Origin: Candidatus Geohabitans tengchongensis
Lineage (GTDB): Bacteria > Sysuimicrobiota > Sysuimicrobiia > Sysuimicrobiales > Humicultoraceae
Assembly: GCA_031459625.1 (NCBI GenBank)
Contig: JAVKIH010000010.1
Location: forward strand, 21,347 to 85,346
Direction of reading: 5' to 3'
DNA length: 64,000 nucleotides
Within the stretch, counting starts at the first letter, position 1; every line of letters starts with the position of its first letter. A program made the translations under genes and the position numbers. The notes beneath the pieces are model-generated. The model was not told where the DNA came from. It saw nothing but the letters and a program-made list of their open reading frames with translations, and made no database searches. Shown one piece after another: positions 8,285-29,264 of the stretch.

Positions 8285-9085
8285 TCAACTGATCTCGGCC
8301 TTCACTTCCCGCAGGAAGCCTCCGACAGCGACCTGAGCGAGGAAGTTGATACTCTGAACCATGATCATCCGGACGCCTGTATCGTGCAGTTTTTTGATCC
8401 GACGGACTAGCTCATCCATGTCGTAGGCGTAGCTGGTGTTCGCCCCGATCATGATGTGGTGCTCGGCACCGTAGGCCACCGCCCGCTTCACATAGTCCCA
8501 GAGCTTTGGGAGGTACCAATCGGGCTTGCGCCCGCCCGACAGCACCTTGCTCGAGTCCGTCATCGCGAAGAAGAACGCTTTCAGCCCCGGGAGGCGCAAG
8601 GTTTCGTCGAACTCCTCGTAGGCGGTCACGCTCTCGAGGTGGGGGATGATGAATGTGTTCTGCTCCATCTCCGTGGTGCGCGGATCCCACTCTTCGAAGC
8701 TGTCGAAGGGATGGATCCATAGAGCTTTGCGGTGCCAGTCGCCCGCCATGGACAGGCACTCCTCGATCTCGCGCTTCCCCGAGTTCGACACGAGGACGAA
8801 GTTCGCTCCGATCGACAGGAGGCGGAAGACGTCGACGGACACCCGGTGGTCATAGCCGAGCCAGGGGCAGGACTGTACCCGGACAACCGGCGTGACGCCG
8901 GCGGCTTCGGCGGCGGTGATGAGCGCGTGGACCTGGTTGAAGTCGAAGGGGGAGAGGATCTGGTCGATAAACACCCAGTCGAACCCTAAGTGGGCGCACA
9001 AGTCGATCATGTCGGGACTCATTGCAATCGTGCCGATCGAGGTTTTTCCGGTCCTGAAGTTCTCGAGCAGCGGGCTCCTCGCCAT
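8285..9085 (-). CDS. HpcH/HpaI aldolase-citrate lyase family protein, divergent
   Basis: GFDWVFID, GVTPVVRV, PHLES; ATG 9085 with AGGAGG. Confidence 0.7.
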   Translation of the reverse strand: MARSPLLENFRTGKTSIGTIAMSPDMIDLCAHLGFDWVFIDQILSPFDFNQVHALITAAEAAGVTPVVRVQSCPWLGYDHRVSVDVFRLLSIGANFVLVSNSGKREIEECLSMAGDWHRKALWIHPFDSFEEWDPRTTEMEQNTFIIPHLESVTAYEEFDETLRLPGLKAFFFAMTDSSKVLSGGRKPDWYLPKLWDYVKRAVAYGAEHHIMIGANTSYAYDMDELVRRIKKLHDTGVRMIMVQSINFLAQVAVGGFLREVKAEIS

Positions 9086-20507: not shown

Positions 20508-21404
20508 GTGCAGGCCATCGAGGCGCTGCGCGCCTTCTTCGCTCAGGAGCCCGACGTCGCCGCCGTCTACCTGTACGGGAGCTACGCGGGCGACCGCTCC
20601 TACCCCGACACCGACATCGAGATCGCGCTGCTCTTCCCCGAGGAGACGGACGAGGAGGCCATCCGCGACTACATGGACCGGCTGGCCGGCGCCGCCCCGC
20701 TCGGTGGGGAGCCCGGGATCCTGCTCCCCTTTGCCCTCAACACCCACATCCCGCCGGTGATCTACGAGATCCTGCACGGCGGCACGCTCCTGGTGGAGAA
20801 CCAGCCGGAAGCCCGGGCCGCGGCCGTGCGCGCGCTGGAGGCCCGGGTCGAAGGGGAGCGGGCCAGCCTGCTGGAGGACGCCAAGGAAGCGATCCTGCAG
20901 GCCCGCTCGCTCGGGCTGGCCGTGGCGGCGCTGGACGGGTTCGTCCTGCCCCAGCCGCCGCGCTACCTCGACCCGATCCGCGTGGGATGGCGCCTGGCCC
21001 GCGTGCTCGGCTCGGCGGCCGTGCTCGACCAGGCCCTGCGCGACGTCGACCGCCTCCTGCGGGAGCAGGAGCGGCTGGCCCAGGCCGCGGGCTGGTACAG
21101 CAACGCGGTGGGCGCGGCGACCGGCATCGCCAAGGCCATGCTCAACATGTTCGCCATGCCGCGACCGCCCCGGCGGTGGCAGGTCTTCCTGCCGCTGGCC
21201 GACGGCGGTCTCATCTCCACCGAGCTCGCCCTGCAGCTGGGGGCCGCCGTGGAGCTGCGCTGGTCCCTGATGACCGGCGGGGCCGTGGCCGCCGAGCGCG
21301 TCGTGGGGGGGATCCGCAGCGCGCTGCCGCCCGTCGTCGCCTTCGCCCGGCTGGCCGCCTGGTACGCCGAGGTGCCCGGCGGGCGGGCGCAACCCGTCCA
21401 TTGA
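20508..21404 (+). CDS. Minimal nucleotidyltransferase domain fused to HEPN/DUF86-like domain
   Basis: AVYLYGSYA...DTDIEIALL; C-terminal FLPLADGGLISTELA...VELRWSL resembles DUF86. Confidence 0.65.
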   Translation: MQAIEALRAFFAQEPDVAAVYLYGSYAGDRSYPDTDIEIALLFPEETDEEAIRDYMDRLAGAAPLGGEPGILLPFALNTHIPPVIYEILHGGTLLVENQPEARAAAVRALEARVEGERASLLEDAKEAILQARSLGLAVAALDGFVLPQPPRYLDPIRVGWRLARVLGSAAVLDQALRDVDRLLREQERLAQAAGWYSNAVGAATGIAKAMLNMFAMPRPPRRWQVFLPLADGGLISTELALQLGAAVELRWSLMTGGAVAAERVVGGIRSALPPVVAFARLAAWYAEVPGGRAQPVH

Positions 21405-21471: not shown

Positions 21472-21741
21472 ATGGACCCGGTGACCGTGGACGTGCAGCC
21501 GACGCCCAACGTGAACGCGCTGAAGTTCGTGGTGAACCGCCGCCTCACCGAGGGGCGCAGCCGTACCTTCCGCGCGGCCGCGGAGGCGGCGGACGTGCCG
21601 GTGGCCCAGCGCCTCCTCGCCATCCCCGGCGTGGTGCAGGTCTTCCTGCTGAACGACTTCATCACGGTGACGCGGGACCCGTCCGCCGACTGGAACGCCA
21701 TCATCCCGCAGGTGGAGGCGGTGCTGCGCGAGATGCTGTAG
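21472..21741 (+). CDS. Nfu/NifU N-terminal scaffold domain protein
   Basis: PTPNVNALKF, IPGVVQVF, DFITVT, W motif; GGAGG SD. Confidence 0.85.
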   Translation: MDPVTVDVQPTPNVNALKFVVNRRLTEGRSRTFRAAAEAADVPVAQRLLAIPGVVQVFLLNDFITVTRDPSADWNAIIPQVEAVLREML

Positions 21742-21785: not shown

Positions 21786-23243
21786 TCACCTGAGCACCGG
21801 ATGACCGACACCGGGCGGAGGGTGGCCGGTCGTCGCCACGGCGTCGGCTGCCGGGTGCCTCCGGTGGAGCGACCAGCTCGGTCCGGGCCGAGTTCCGTTC
21901 GGCTCCTCCGCGCTGCCCTCCGTGCCATCCCGGCGCACGGTCGACCACCTCTGCGCCAGGCCCGCCACTTGGGCCTCGTACCCGTTGTGCGCCCGGCAGC
22001 GCAGCTCGAGGTTCGCGACGGTCGACCGCCCCCCTCGAGCCACGGGCTGGAGGTGGTGGAACTCCAGGAAGGCGGTCTCGCTGCACCGACGCCCATCCGG
22101 CGCGACGAAGGCGCACCGCCCGCCGTCCCGCACCCAGACCGTTCGCCTCACCGACGCCGGGATGGACCGGACCGGTGCGGCCGGCCGCTTGGCCGGTGCG
22201 GTCGGTCGCTTGGCCGGTGCGGTCGGTCGCTTGGCCGGTGCGGTCGGCCGCGCGCCCACAGACCGCGCTCCCGCCTCGCGCGCCGGGCCCGGCTCTCGTG
22301 GCCGGGCGGCGGCCCCGGTCCGGCGGCGGGCGACCTGCTGGAGGAGGGCGGTGAGGGCCCGGTCGATGACCTGCGCGAGGTCGCCGTCGGGGATCTGGTG
22401 GCGCAGCAGGTCCTGGGCCTGCCGCAGCTTGGCCACCGTGGCGGCGCTGGCGGTGAACTGGACTTTGTAGCGCCCGGGGGCGAGCGGCTGGACGAGCGGC
22501 CGGTGGGACGGACGGGGGGAGGTGGTGGATTGCGGGTGCTCACGCTGCGGCTTGAGGATGCCAGTCGTGGCTGCGCCGGAGGCATCCGCGCTGTCAGCGC
22601 CGGAGGGTTGGCCCCTCTGTGTGGTCGCCTCGGCGGGCCCCGGCGTCTGAAGGGGCGGCGCCGCTCCCAGGGACGTCCCCGAGGCTATTGACCGTGGCGC
22701 CGGCAGTCGCCGCAGGACCGTGGGCACCGGTGGCTGGGGGTGGAGTGTCGCCACCAGCGCTTCCACCTCCCGCTTCGACCGGCCGGCGGCCGCGCGTAGG
22801 ACCGCCTGGTGGTTGGCCGGGGTGAGGTGAGGAGCGAGGAGGGTGACCGTGGTAAGGGTGAGGGCGCCGCTGGCCAGGAGGTCGAGGAGGAGGGGGAAGC
22901 GGTGGGCGGCGCGGGCGGCCTGGATGCGGTGGTAGGCGGCGTGCTCGGAGAGGCGGAGGACCTCGGTGCAGTAGGTGAAGAGGGAGGCGCACCCGCGGGC
23001 CAGGTAGAGGCGGCGGGCGTCGAGCTCGGCGAGGTGGGCAACGAGGGCGGTGGTGGCCTCGCGCTCGCGGGCCGCGAGGGCCGAGACCTGCTCCAGCAGA
23101 TCCGTGTCGGAGAGCCGCGCCACCGCGTCGAGCATGGCCGCAGCAGAGAACCGTACGCCCGTGGAGCGCTGCCCGGCGGCATCGAGCGGCGCGGCGTGTC
23201 TGGCGTGTGTGGCGTGCGTGGAAGCGTTCAGGCTCGTGCTCAT
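21786..23243 (-). CDS. HNH endonuclease with long helical N-terminal (DUF222/13E12-like) region and putative RHH
   Basis: RDGGRC...RC...LEFHH...GG...NLELRCRAHN; start uncertain (23243 or a downstream ATG). Confidence 0.85.
   Translation of the reverse strand: MSTSLNASTHATHARHAAPLDAAGQRSTGVRFSAAAMLDAVARLSDTDLLEQVSALAAREREATTALVAHLAELDARRLYLARGCASLFTYCTEVLRLSEHAAYHRIQAARAAHRFPLLLDLLASGALTLTTVTLLAPHLTPANHQAVLRAAAGRSKREVEALVATLHPQPPVPTVLRRLPAPRSIASGTSLGAAPPLQTPGPAEATTQRGQPSGADSADASGAATTGILKPQREHPQSTTSPRPSHRPLVQPLAPGRYKVQFTASAATVAKLRQAQDLLRHQIPDGDLAQVIDRALTALLQQVARRRTGAAARPREPGPAREAGARSVGARPTAPAKRPTAPAKRPTAPAKRPAAPVRSIPASVRRTVWVRDGGRCAFVAPDGRRCSETAFLEFHHLQPVARGGRSTVANLELRCRAHNGYEAQVAGLAQRWSTVRRDGTEGSAEEPNGTRPGPSWSLHRRHPAADAVATTGHPPPGVGHPVLR
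21875..21894. repeat. 20-bp palindrome AGCTCGGTCCGGGCCGAGTT (copy 1, in HNH 3' end)
   Basis: Reverse complement matches 23674-23693 at 19/20. Confidence 0.8.
22174..22250 (-). repeat. 21-bp in-frame tandem repeat encoding (RPTAPAK)x3
   Basis: GCTTGGCCGGTGCGGTCGGTC repeated. Confidence 0.9.
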
Positions 23244-23526
23244 GGCTCAGAGATAACACGGGTGTGGGGAGCCCTCCGGAAGGCCGCGAGGAGGGCGCAA
23301 CTCGGTCGGCCCGCTGCCGAAGGCCCGCCGCGTCGCGCAGCCGCCCCTGCGCCGAATGGACGCGCTCCAGGGGCATCCTGGCGGTGCGCGTCGTGCGTCG
23401 CTGGATGTGCACAAATTTCCCTGTCAAGTCGACAAATCGAGCGACAGAAAAGTTTCCCCGGCTGCCGACGAAAATAATTTAGCCCCGGCCGCCGATATCT
23501 CGCTGCTAGATCTCACTGGACTCGCC

Positions 23527-23650
23527 GGGCCATCACGCGCCACACATCCCAGGGCCTGTCGCACGCCACACATCCCGGGGCCCGTCGCACGTCACACATC
23601 CCAAGGACCATCGCGCGCTGCACGTCCCAAGGCCGTTGCGCGCCGCGCAG
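23527..23650. repeat. Tandem array of about five 25-26 bp units (GGGCCyGTCGCACGCCACACATCCCA-like)
   Basis: Units start 23527, 23552, 23578, 23604, 23630; degenerate to the right. Confidence 0.85.
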
Positions 23651-23673
23651 GTGACTCGACGCGCACCAGGAGC

Positions 23674-23735
23674 AACTCGGCCCGGGCCGAGCTCAACCTG
23701 AGCGCGAGGAGGCACAACTCGACCCGACCCGAGTT
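23674..23735. repeat. Palindrome copies 2 and 3 (AACTCGGCCCGGGCCGAGCT; AACTCGACCCGACCCGAGTT)
   Basis: 23674-23693 and 23716-23735, 42 bp period. Confidence 0.8.
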
Positions 23736-26140: not shown

Positions 26141-26815
26141 ATGACTCTGAAGAGGCAGCCGCGCCCCCCCGCCGGGGCGGGCGTCCGGCGCCGGGTGCCG
26201 GCGCGCCCGGCCCGCCCGCGCGCGCCCGCCCGGGCCGTGCGCGCCCTGGGCGTGGCCCGGACCCTGCGGGACGTCGGGCAGCGTATCCGGGCGGTGCGCC
26301 TGGCGCGGCGGATCACCCTGGCGCACGTGGCGCGGGAGACGGGGCTGAGCGCCGGGATGCTGAGCATGGTGGAGCGCGGAGTGGTCAACCCGTCCATCGG
26401 CACGCTGGTGGCCATCGCCGACGCGCTGCAGATCCCCATGGCCGCGCTCTTCGACGCCCTGGGCGAGCCCTCGTCGAGCCCGGTGGTGCGCCGCGAGGAG
26501 CAGCCGCTCGTGCGCACCCGCCCCGGGGTGGAGCGCCGGGTGCTGGCGCGCGACGACCCCTGGGACGTGGAGCTGGCGGAGAACTGCTACGAGCCCGGCA
26601 CGGCCAGCGCCGACCACCCCATCAAGCACCGGGGCCGGGAGCTGGGGGTGGTCCTGGAGGGACGCCTCCGGGTCGAGGTGGCTGGCCGCACCTACGAGCT
26701 GCGCCCCATGGACGCCATCGCCTTCGACTCCTCGCTGCCGCACCGCTTCGTCAACCCGGGGCCGCGGCGCGCCCGCACCATCTGGGTGAACGTCCATGGC
26801 ACGCGCACTCGCTAA
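26141..26815 (+). CDS. XRE-family HTH regulator with cupin sensor domain
   Basis: GLSAGMLSMVERGVVNPSIGTL, HRGRE, FDSSLPHRFVN. Confidence 0.9.
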   Translation: MTLKRQPRPPAGAGVRRRVPARPARPRAPARAVRALGVARTLRDVGQRIRAVRLARRITLAHVARETGLSAGMLSMVERGVVNPSIGTLVAIADALQIPMAALFDALGEPSSSPVVRREEQPLVRTRPGVERRVLARDDPWDVELAENCYEPGTASADHPIKHRGRELGVVLEGRLRVEVAGRTYELRPMDAIAFDSSLPHRFVNPGPRRARTIWVNVHGTRTR

Positions 26816-29264
26816 CGCCGAGCGGACCGTGGTCGTCGGGGCCTCGGTGCGCCGGCGGGAGGACCCGCGCCTCCTCACCGGCGCGGGCCGCTACGTGGCC
26901 GACCTGACGCTGCCCGGCTGCCTCCACGCCGTGGTCGTGCGCAGCCCCCACGCCCACGCCCGCCTCCGCGCCATCGACACCGCGGCGGCGCGCCGCCACC
27001 CCGGCGTCCACCTGGTAGCCACCGCCGCCGACCTGGGCCCGGTCCCGCGCATCCCCATCCGCCTGGGCGACCGCCCGGAGCTGCGCCGCTTCCTCCAGCC
27101 GCCGCTGGCGCAGGACCGCGTGCGCTACGTCGGCGAGCCGGTGGCCCTCGTGGTGGCCGACGACCGCTACGCGGCGGAGGACGCCGCGGAACTGGTCGCG
27201 GTGGACTACGAGCCCCTGCCGCCCGTCCCCGACGTCGAGGCGGCCCTGCGGCCTGAGGCCCCTCTCCTCCACCCCGAGGCCGGCACGAACCTGGCGGAGC
27301 GGCTCCTCTTTCGCCGCGGCGACCCCGAGGGCGTGGCGGCGACGGCCCCGGTGCGGCTGCGCCGCCGCCTGAGCGTGCAGCGCCACACCGGGGTGCCGCT
27401 GGAGACGCGGGGCCTGCTCGCCGCCCCCGACCCCGCCGGCCGCCTCACCGTCTGGGGCCCGACCAAGGTGCCGCACTTCAACCGATCCGTGCTGGCCACG
27501 CTGCTGGGGGTGCCGGAGTCGCGCATCCACTTCGTGGAGCCCGACGTGGGCGGCGGCTTCGGGGTGCGCGGCGAGTTCTACCCGGAGGACCTGCTCGTCC
27601 CCTGGGCGGCGCTGCGCCTGCGCCGGCCGGTGAAGTGGGTGGAGGACCGCCGCGAGCACCTGGTGGCCACGAACCACTCCCGCCAGCAGGTGCACGAGAT
27701 CGAGCTGGCCAGCGACCGGGAGGGGCGCATCCTGGCCCTGCTCGACCGCGCCGTGGTGGACATGGGCGCCTACCTGCGCACCCACGGCGTCACCGTCCCG
27801 GAGCTGACGCAGGCGCTGCTGCCGGGTCCCTACGCCCTCCCCCACTACCGCTCCGAGGTCCTGTGCGTCCTCACCACCAAAACGCCCACCGGCACCTACC
27901 GGGCCCCCGGCCGGTTCGAGGCCAACGTCGTGCGCGAGCGCCTGGTCGACCTGCTGGCCGAGGCGGTGGGGCTCGACCCCGCCGAGGTGCGCCGCCGCAA
28001 CTTCGTCCCCCCCACCGCGATGCCCTACGACCTGGGGACGCGCACGCTGGGCACGCCCACGATCTACGACACGGGGGACTACGCCTCCGCGCTCGACCAG
28101 GCGCTGGAGGCGGGGGCGTACGCGGCGTGGCGGCGCCGCCAGGCGGAGGCCCGGCGGGAGGGGCGCGCCGTGGGCATCGGGCTGGCCTCCATCGTGGAGA
28201 AGACCGGGCTGGGCCCGTGGGAGATGGCCCGTGTGGAGGTGGACGTCTCGGGCCAGGTGGTCGTCTACACCGGCATCACCGCGCTCGGCCAGGGGATCGA
28301 GACCGCCTACGCGCAGATCGCCGCGGAGGCGCTGGGCTGCCCCCCGGAGGCCGTCACCGTGGTGCACGGCGACACGGACCGCGTCCCCTACGGGCGCGGC
28401 GCCTTCGCCAGCCGCGGCACGGCGGTGGGCGGGGTGGCGGTGCACCTGGCCGCGCGGCGCGTGCGTGACCGCCTGGTGGCGCTGGCGGCCGACCGCCTGG
28501 AGGCCGCTCCGGCGGACCTGGTGGTGGCGGACGGCGCGGTCTGGGTGCGCGGGGTGCCGGGGCGGCGGGTCACCTTCGGCGAGCTGGTGGCGGCGGCCCA
28601 CCCCGAGGCGACGGTGCCGCGCGGCGAGGCCCCGGGGGTGGAGGCCACCGCCTTCTTCCAGGCGCCGATGATGACCTATCCCTACGGCACGCACCTGGCG
28701 GTCGTAGAGGTGGACCGCGAAACCGGCGTGGTCCGCCTGCTCGACTACGCGCTCACCTATGACGTGGGCCGGGCGGTGAACCCGCGCCTGGTCGAAGGGC
28801 AGCTGGTCGGGGGGCTGGCGCAGGGCATCGGCGGGGCGCTGCTGGAGGAGCTCGCCTACGACACCCAGGCCCAGCCCCTCGCCGTCACCTTCATGGACTA
28901 CCTCCTGCCGGCGGCCACGGAGATGCCGGCCCGCCTGAGCGTGCGCATCCTCGAGGAGACGCCCACGCCGCTCAACCCGCTCGGGGTGAAGGGGGCGGGG
29001 GAGGGCGGGACGGCCGGAGCCGGGGCGGCCATCGCCAACGCCGTGGCCGACGCCCTGCGCCCCTTCGGGGCCGAGGTCTGCGACCTGCCGCTCACCCCCG
29101 CCCGCATCCTGGCCGCGCTGCGGGCCGCCGGGGATGCGGCCGCCGGGGATGCGGCCACCCGGGATGCGGCCGCCGGGGATGCGGCCACCCGGGATGCGGC
29201 CGCCGGGGATGCGGCCGTCGGGGATGCGGCGGCCGTGGGGCACGGGGAGGGGAGGCCGCGGTGA
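26796..29264 (+). CDS. Xanthine dehydrogenase-family molybdenum hydroxylase large subunit
   Basis: RREDPRLL, RSPHAHA, VGGGFG, YRAPGR, GQG, GVKGAGE. Confidence 0.93.
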   Translation: MARALANAERTVVVGASVRRREDPRLLTGAGRYVADLTLPGCLHAVVVRSPHAHARLRAIDTAAARRHPGVHLVATAADLGPVPRIPIRLGDRPELRRFLQPPLAQDRVRYVGEPVALVVADDRYAAEDAAELVAVDYEPLPPVPDVEAALRPEAPLLHPEAGTNLAERLLFRRGDPEGVAATAPVRLRRRLSVQRHTGVPLETRGLLAAPDPAGRLTVWGPTKVPHFNRSVLATLLGVPESRIHFVEPDVGGGFGVRGEFYPEDLLVPWAALRLRRPVKWVEDRREHLVATNHSRQQVHEIELASDREGRILALLDRAVVDMGAYLRTHGVTVPELTQALLPGPYALPHYRSEVLCVLTTKTPTGTYRAPGRFEANVVRERLVDLLAEAVGLDPAEVRRRNFVPPTAMPYDLGTRTLGTPTIYDTGDYASALDQALEAGAYAAWRRRQAEARREGRAVGIGLASIVEKTGLGPWEMARVEVDVSGQVVVYTGITALGQGIETAYAQIAAEALGCPPEAVTVVHGDTDRVPYGRGAFASRGTAVGGVAVHLAARRVRDRLVALAADRLEAAPADLVVADGAVWVRGVPGRRVTFGELVAAAHPEATVPRGEAPGVEATAFFQAPMMTYPYGTHLAVVEVDRETGVVRLLDYALTYDVGRAVNPRLVEGQLVGGLAQGIGGALLEELAYDTQAQPLAVTFMDYLLPAATEMPARLSVRILEETPTPLNPLGVKGAGEGGTAGAGAAIANAVADALRPFGAEVCDLPLTPARILAALRAAGDAAAGDAATRDAAAGDAATRDAAAGDAAVGDAAAVGHGEGRPR
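29127..29232 (+). repeat. 15-bp in-frame tandem repeat (GDAAA/GDAAT/RDAAA) at C-terminus
   Basis: GGGATGCGGCC recurs about every 15 bp. Confidence 0.9.

Follow-up and report, generated by a model that had tools for sequence, protein, structure and literature searches.

The question raised by the locus analysed here is why a gene coding for an HNH endonuclease should lie among copies of a 20-bp palindrome in the genome of Candidatus Geohabitans tengchongensis (assembly GCA_031459625.1), and whether gene and palindromes together form a mobile unit. The window, i.e. the whole stretch of 64,000 nucleotides (nt) that was analysed, corresponds to positions 21347-85346 of contig C2 (JAVKIH010000010.1) of this genome, labelled G000, whose other contigs referred to below are C12, C13, C27 and C28; the term intergenic is used there with respect to codon-model gene calls. 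The gene, an open reading frame (ORF) of 485 amino acids on the minus strand (21786..23243), is one copy of a multi-copy element of 1.3-1.5 kb bounded by 20-bp palindromes, and these palindromes very probably delimit a whole mobile family.

In the window, the motif AACTCG-N8-CGAGYT occurs at 21875-21894, 23674-23693 and 23716-23735, which bears out the three sites listed in an earlier note made from the letters alone: a motif scan gave 8 strand-matches vs. 0.28 expected, and none of 100 shuffles had as many. The consensus of that note, AACTCG-N8-CGAG(T/C)T, matches these sites, but its symmetry is not limited to the outer 6 bp, since the entire 20-mer is symmetric (family consensus AACTCGGTCC|GGACCGAGTT). 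Likewise, copy 1 read on the minus strand is indeed identical to copy 2 at 19/20 positions, although calling the two inverted carries little meaning as each copy is self-complementary, and the nearest homologous stretches do not keep the partial matches reported near 23299 and 23653 as palindromes. The motif had not been noticed elsewhere in the window; a further match, with one mismatch and non-symmetric, lies at 8766-8785, scores <11 bits with the family matrix and is probably due to chance. At the genome level, there are 7 exact matches, and a matrix trained on other genomes found 12 sites of at least 14 bits vs. 2 in the reversed genome. At a threshold of at least 11 bits, 15 of 16 sites are intergenic, the remaining one being the copy in the window ORF tail.

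The evidence that these palindromes are element ends comes from the homologous loci. In the first 80 of them, 450 nt upstream and 230 nt downstream of the HNH gene were searched for a 20-mer with the ends ACT...AGT and an almost perfect symmetry; it was present upstream in 37/63 and downstream in 34/65 cases, vs. 1/411 windows located more than 1 kb away, so that the palindrome does occupy fixed positions in the homolog flanks, the inspection of which the earlier note had proposed. Within an element, both ends are of the same variant: in the 15 elements with both palindromes, among 49 with both windows, they differ by 0.4 nt vs. 2.8 nt when shuffled (0 of 5000 shuffles). In distant clades, the frame AACT-N6|N6-AGTT is constant while the inner bases vary symmetrically; positions 5 to 7, left free in the search, are symmetric at 160, 164 and 160 of the 169 sites; four pair types were seen at positions 5 and 7, and a second site set, itself selected for pairing, agrees on this symmetry. 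In 4/5 pairs of paralogs at different loci, the outer edge of the upstream palindrome is where homology ends; downstream, homology runs past the palindrome by 0-8 nt in most of 15 paralog pairs and by about 25 nt in one; it extends by ~35 nt between the window and C12, and by 23-30 nt, as far as the stop codon, in a Myxococcota lineage. Element length is 1315-1485 nt in 29/38 cases.

Concerning the window copy, the palindrome at 21875..21894, within the ORF tail, is the subterminal end signal on the downstream side (motif scan and homolog flanks). The earlier note had copies 1 and 2 enclosing the gene and its leader; copy 1 is the downstream end, and copy 2 belongs to a mini-element attached to the element. 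The segment 23501..23693 is a ~190-bp mini-element with a 26-nt tandem array at 23527-23630, homologous by alignment to the solo site G000:C12:329238; therefore the intact palindrome at 23674..23693 (motif scan and alignment) forms the outer limit of this attached mini-element and the present upstream end of the composite. The original upstream palindrome lies, decayed, at about 23477..23500, as placed by an alignment of the window leader with the two closest leaders, and aligns with the intact palindromes of L197 and L025. The third palindrome (23716..23735), 42 nt from the second, is more degenerate (motif scan and family matrix). Beyond the window, the genome has two long paralogs, on C27 and C28, and, on C12, a 3' fragment with a nucleotide identity of 93%.

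Palindromes were also met in other settings. In one genus, a palindrome lies in frame within the linker of the HNH gene, at one homologous position (L106:1858, L107:1988, L110:1998, L111:1383 and L123:2047), and in L122 the in-linker palindrome is decayed. In L124:1252-2457, a non-HNH, beta-propeller-like gene stands between two palindromes that share an adjoining motif, possibly a cargo element. Motifs of 10-14 nt specific to each lineage adjoin the palindromes, of the CCGAAC type in G000 and of the GGAATTGTAAC type in genus g9.

Movement was approached through gene numbers, empty sites and solo sites. Of 31 related genomes, 15 were found to hold the gene, all of them members of its own family, and the matches numbered 0-16 per genome, many fragments included; profile matches per genome range from 0 to 19. 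Palindrome counts follow gene counts in these 31 genomes (Spearman 0.88, vs. -0.20 for a reversed-pattern control, kin not being independent), contrary to the independent scatter that the earlier note had named as a point that would speak against its proposal; vertical conservation, named there as another, is not seen either, as no HNH gene follows the nucleotidyltransferase-Nfu region described below in 14 loci of other genera, of which 13 show Nfu and two end soon after it. Truncated copies, mini-elements and solo palindromes are dispersed through the gene-holding genomes.

Two genomes of one Myxococcota family, with flanks 83-89% identical, were compared at three orthologous sites, two of which are empty. 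At the first, 1449 vs. 63 nt separate the anchors, and the junction with the flank coincides with the outer edge of the upstream palindrome; some 20 nt away there is a solo palindrome belonging to a different type, a decayed form of which is still present in the filled locus. At the second, the anchors are 1609 vs. 134 nt apart and the empty site is without palindrome. Both filled loci hold 65-150 nt of extra DNA past the downstream palindrome, and no target-site duplication was found in 38 elements (1.79 vs. 1.95 nt shuffled). Solo sites differ between strains as well: two sites of G000 are missing from sister strains, where 17 nt stand for 146 (X5) and 45 nt for 147 (X12), the former difference looking like a loss in X5. 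Also, an X5 contig joins 21917 to 23154, i.e. an internally deleted copy with 37 nt on its short side.

Several observations weigh against mobility as described. The third orthologous site held other DNA, and the 83-89% identity of the genome pair blurs junctions. The element at the window locus is present in the related strains compared and is therefore old at this locus; the C28 copy is, in addition, common to a relative, so that neither copy points to recent movement. Neither an excised circle nor a palindrome-to-palindrome joint was found in four runs, of which only contigs were covered. Apart from these points, an empty site at the window locus, which the earlier note had suggested looking for between the Nfu-N and bicupin genes, was rejected, the Nfu and cupin neighbours not being adjacent in other genera and the related strains carrying the element. 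Three genus-level comparisons within the family of the genome yielded gene-free orthologous loci that were otherwise rearranged, with no clean junction.

The same loci bear on the idea that the palindromes are recombination sites, the element integrating into one and leaving one behind on excision, so that solo sites would be targets and scars. It would account for the absence of target duplication, for the palindrome that the composite upstream end of the window shares with the mini-element, for the several upstream palindromes of other loci, for the solo palindrome ~20 nt from one empty site and for the palindrome pair around the non-HNH gene of L124. However, one empty site is without palindrome, the palindrome of the other is of a different type and can still be recognised, decayed, next to the insertion, the downstream homology extends past the palindrome, and the protein is without a recombinase domain; we regard it as decidedly improbable.

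As for the solo sites, no common function was evident among their neighbours, read by eye, and the other such sites form small repeat subfamilies of 45-95 nt. Tandem duplications are not enriched beside palindromes (11/198 vs. 51/703 offset windows), and this possibility was rejected. One solo palindrome, G000:C12:302621 (L147:4022), has ~40 bp of symmetry and a 12-nt tandem unit and lies in an AT-rich promoter region; another, G000:C13:6379 (L149:4080), lies in the spacer of two tRNA-like genes, as identified by eye. In genome G063 (L287:2920-3020), an unrelated ~95-bp repeat has at least 35 copies, some of them in tandem.

The protein belongs to a large family: 4992 of 7990 scored candidates were homologs, i.e. 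at least 4992 database proteins, in phyla that include Armatimonadota, Acidobacteriota, Myxococcota, Thermodesulfobacteriota and others, whereas none of 28 candidate stretches in viral contigs was confirmed. From the N-terminus, the window ORF comprises a predicted ParB-like DNA-binding domain, a low-complexity linker, a ribbon-helix-helix (RHH)-like segment, a Zn-binding HNH nuclease domain and an unconserved tail, as delimited by Pfam, a predicted model and alignment. The HNH domain (21930..22172, minus strand) matches Pfam HNH, and the corresponding part of the model matches the HNH protein of phage GVE2 (Z 6.0). In model numbering, which is the ORF number minus 36, the zinc and catalytic residues C341, C351, H361 and C380 are kept in 161/161 homologs and H383 and N384 in 159/161, counted on the 161 of 182 alignment rows that cover the domain. 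The strand-helix-helix segment (22320..22493, minus strand) was delimited by the secondary structure of the model and matches Pfam RHH_5 in 1/97 members; judging solely from its RHH-like fold, it is likely a dimerisation module. The helical N-domain, RHH-like segment and intact Zn-HNH of the earlier note are thus all retained. Between the last two lies a strain-variable 21-nt tandem repeat (22172..22251), with a 42-nt shorter form in run X6. Pfam and NCBIfam scans of 97 members gave HNH only, without any HUH (Y1 or Y2), DDE transposase or recombinase domain, and a sequence search of the PDB gave no match under E 0.06.

The N-domain was modelled from 97 sequences (mean predicted local distance difference test score of 73, above 90 in the N-domain, which is helical from residue 1), while its single-sequence prediction was poor (predicted template modelling score 0.40). 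The best structural match of this predicted ParB/KorB-type helix-turn-helix domain (ORF residues 64-169; 22737..23054, minus strand) is the DNA-binding domain of ParB on parS (6s6h), with Z 8.2, a root-mean-square deviation of 2.8 and 94 aligned residues; KorB (Z 7.6 and 7.2) and Spo0J (Z 6.7, fifth row) were also matched.

Covariation between protein and palindrome was analysed in those 114 of 182 elements for which both a site and an almost complete protein were available. For bases 5, 7, 8 and 9, the most informative protein columns are residues 65, 69, 95 and 121, respectively, all in the N-domain; together with residue 98, they correspond to H101, H105, T131, T134 and K157 of the window ORF (within 22737..23054, minus strand). 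H65 goes with C5 (80/82) and A/G/S65 with G5 (14/19); G69 with G7 (49/49) and N69 with T or C (25/26); T95 with T8 (77/81) and A/G/S95 with C8 (20/24); and K121 with C9 (87/87). When residue-base pairs were tested for shared changes on a tree from which those columns had been left out, each of the four came first among 961-984 tests. N69 turns up in several distinct clades, mostly accompanied by R98 and by a pyrimidine as base 7, and the independent-pair tests never run opposite to this code. Newly searched genomes supplied three further elements, in which base 9 (3/3) and base 8 (2/2 called) obeyed the code. ParB-family domains such as ParB and Noc are described as using four residues, of which two lie 28 positions apart, to set palindrome specificity (PMC7383237); residues 69 and 98, 29 apart, parallel that pair by numbering only.

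Against such a reading of the DNA stand a number of results. The Z of 8.2 is borderline, since chance alone can bring helical domains to such values, and a Foldseek search with the model found nothing at E<=0.001. Significance was not reached by the strict independent-pair tests (best 5/0/1 of 6, p=0.06), base 6 is without a clear partner residue, and the same three new elements fit base 5 in 1/3 only, the sole K69 element having T7. Part of the covariation might also stem from co-inheritance or from an exchange of modules. All in all, the residue-base covariation supports self-recognition, as the earlier note had proposed for the nuclease without suggesting ParB-type duplex readout, and the N-domain probably recognises its own palindrome directly.

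The palindrome might instead be the operator or loading site of a regulatory or addiction-type nuclease, the gene then moving by another route and the solo sites serving as its chromosomal binding sites; the KorB/ParB-like fold of the predicted N-domain, a residue-base code that would suit any duplex binding site and the position of the palindrome 16-69 nt from the TTGAC box of the leader are all in keeping with it. Nevertheless, sites are also present downstream of the gene, within the linker and between genes that converge, homology of paralogs extends no further than the upstream palindrome, the neighbours of solo sites read by eye share no evident function, and solo sites come and go between strains, so that we consider this alternative unlikely.

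The code also bears on the possibility that the palindromes act as single-stranded hairpins, like repetitive extragenic palindromic (REP) sequences or the ends of IS200/605, cut by the HNH protein itself or by a host HUH transposase in trans. Their strict symmetry would fit, as would the intergenic position of 15/16 own-genome sites. At the palindrome centre, where a loop would be, the central C:G pair takes 33/112 of the asymmetries over all loci, a bias from which this alternative also draws; all 33 are transitions, as cytosine deamination would give. On the other side, a GTAG tag is found within 8 nt of only 2/220 sites (CGTC-type: 24/220), the helix-turn-helix residues track base identity and not pairing alone, and one-sided G-T changes are absent at pairs 5-8, in a set selected for pairing. 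Hairpins of this kind are, in our opinion, quite unlikely, and duplex readout by the ParB-type domain is preferred.

Upstream of the gene, the leader contains what appears to be a split promoter. In 97/144 genes with 400 nt of upstream sequence, a TTGAC lies 165-173 nt before a TG-n-TA, the box-to-box distance being 169 in 49 genes, 168 in 24, 170 in 16, 171 in 4 and 167 in 3, while the sequence between the boxes has a median pairwise identity of 32%. The pair was found in Armatimonadota, Myxococcota, Acidobacteriota and others. Since ordinary host promoters have 19-21 between the same boxes, 149 bp are extra. In the window (minus strand throughout, by leader comparison), the TTGACA box (23422..23427) is 169 nt upstream of the TG of an extended -10-like box, TGTTAT (23253..23258, leader alignment), across a spacer (23259..23421) which in the family is fixed at 167-171 nt box to box, unconserved in sequence and without consensus RNA fold. 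A strict pattern, derived from the family loci themselves, gave 17 matches in 3/5 genomes; 15 of them immediately precede a family gene and the other 2 lie at the ends of contigs. The palindrome-to-TTGAC distance varies from 16 to 69 nt, and therefore the length constraint ties the two boxes to each other. The fixed-length pair would be a looped promoter, the alternative being a phased host-factor site. As the -10 box lies directly before the ATG, the mRNA is likely leaderless. An RNA run, X4, represented at the locus by contigs only, gave no sign of transcription.

Other views of the spacer were less fruitful. Its lengths are not multiples of three. Helical periodicity was not supported by a per-sequence test (z>2 in 3/97), and a position-averaged periodicity above the shifted control was set aside, the sequences being related. 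Captured host DNA was rejected, as no second match was found in the genome and the spacer is inherited together with the element. A structured leader RNA was rejected as well: no consensus structure emerged in 33 leaders, the mean folding z of 40 leaders was about -0.7 and no credible Rfam match was found. These results count against a leader RNA guiding the HNH nuclease, as in IscB with its omega-RNA or in HEARO, for which a non-coding leader of 200-250 nt, conserved in length, and weak IscB profile matches in 76/97 members might be invoked. Moreover, the IscB match concerns the HNH part only (20.4 bits vs. a cut-off of 175) and the -10 box stands directly before the ATG, downstream of the leader; such a guide is very improbable.

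Beside the element, the window carries a nucleotidyltransferase fused to a weak HepT-like domain (20508-21404), followed by a stand-alone gene for an Nfu N-terminal domain (21472-21741). The fusion was found in 30/33 family genomes and the Nfu N-terminal gene is next to it in 13/14 loci, making a conserved pair that is unusual for a toxin-antitoxin-like fusion. Further away, 15-nt tandem repeats at ~29140-29230 give an Ala-Gly-Asp-rich tail to ORF 26796-29264, labelled by eye as molybdopterin dehydrogenase-like.

Compared with known systems, the organisation recalls REP sequences and their tyrosine transposases (RAYT, or TnpA-REP), in which a nuclease gene is flanked by cognate palindromes that are also found solo between genes and co-evolve with the enzyme (PMC8266576, PMC3733652). 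Here too, cognate palindromes flank the gene of the enzyme and covary with it, and 20-bp copies are dispersed extragenically, REP sequences measuring 20-40 bp. RAYT enzymes act by cleavage and strand transfer on the repeat folded as a single strand. The enzyme here, however, is an HNH nuclease and not an HUH (Y1) tyrosine transposase, the GTAG or CGTC tag that adjoins REP palindromes is missing from most sites, the palindromes are perfect over 20 bp and loop-less, with an apparent duplex readout by a ParB-type domain, and there are up to ~25 sites per genome, with the gene itself multi-copy. The link is thus one of analogy in organisation only.

REP13E12, listed among repetitive elements (PMC10589994), and the DUF222-HNH proteins of Actinomycetota share a helical N-domain, a C-terminal HNH and multiple copies with the present element, which appears to be a distant relative of theirs. 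DUF222 clusters are near neighbours in the Atlas (template modelling scores of 0.68-0.73, with predicted models on both sides); PF02720 has no match in the window protein or in its genome, and 6/97 members match it at E<=0.01 (best 0.0012). The RHH-like segment and the phyla set the present family apart, and no terminal 20-bp palindrome, code or split promoter was found described in the REP13E12 literature searched. REP13E12/DUF222-HNH elements are under DNA-damage (LexA) control.

ParB-parS, Noc-NBS and KorB-OB resemble it by a palindromic site, by a predicted DNA-binding fold of borderline similarity and, for ParB-parS and Noc-NBS, by the few residues that track site bases (PMC7383237). Unlike in ParB-parS, the domain is fused to a nuclease and the sites are element ends; no CTPase domain or ParA partner was found, and the ParBc family is absent from the 97 members scanned. 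IS91/ISCR elements have an HUH Y2 enzyme, no target duplication and one precise plus one ragged end. The absence of target duplication is common to both, and a precise upstream and ragged downstream end is suggested here by few, diverged pairs; the Y2 enzyme is found in none of the 97 members. IscB/IsrB with omega-RNA and HEARO also combine an HNH domain with a non-coding neighbour on a mobile unit, but no RuvC, TnpA or structured RNA was found here, the upstream leader having been examined. Finally, classical DDE insertion sequences differ by a DDE transposase, absent from the 97 members, and by a target-site duplication, absent from the 38 elements.

The explanation that we favour is the following. 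The protein would bind the palindromes as a dimer through its ParB-type helix-turn-helix, each half-site being read in duplex DNA, and nicking by HNH beside the bound palindromes would free one strand, to be copied by a host polymerase and joined at a new intergenic site by host repair. An HNH nuclease makes no covalent intermediate, so joining needs host enzymes, which also weighs against the scheme. The upstream end would be precise and the downstream end ragged, 20-35 nt or more past the palindrome, like in rolling-circle elements, with solo palindromes and mini-elements as non-autonomous passengers or remnants. The TTGACA/extended -10 pair would be one promoter only when the 149 extra bp are looped out, which would keep the nuclease scarce; this is the weakest step. 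Taken as a whole, a palindrome-bounded element whose protein binds its own ends and likely nicks and spreads is, on the sequence data, the reading towards which we lean, with some confidence.

The element is real, family-wide and apparently undescribed: no description of a palindrome-ended HNH element was found in the literature searched, subscription journals and supplements being outside that search, and we know of no insertion-sequence family with an HNH nuclease as sole enzyme. Only tentatively can it be put forward as a new class of transposable elements, with HNH as sole enzyme, a ParB-type domain bearing a four-residue code for its own 20-bp ends, REP-like repeats as offspring and a sigma-70 promoter across a fixed 149-bp loop.

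For the family, whose proteins are now labelled only as HNH endonuclease or hypothetical, the analysis provides a substrate, element boundaries and a testable mechanism, and its natural series of protein-site pairs forms a data set for protein-DNA recognition and possibly a compact site-specific nuclease. It also suggests a way to examine the long-known REP13E12/DUF222 repeats. The spread of REP-like repeats is still called poorly understood (PMC8266576); if true, the favoured explanation would provide a second, unrelated route to such repeats.

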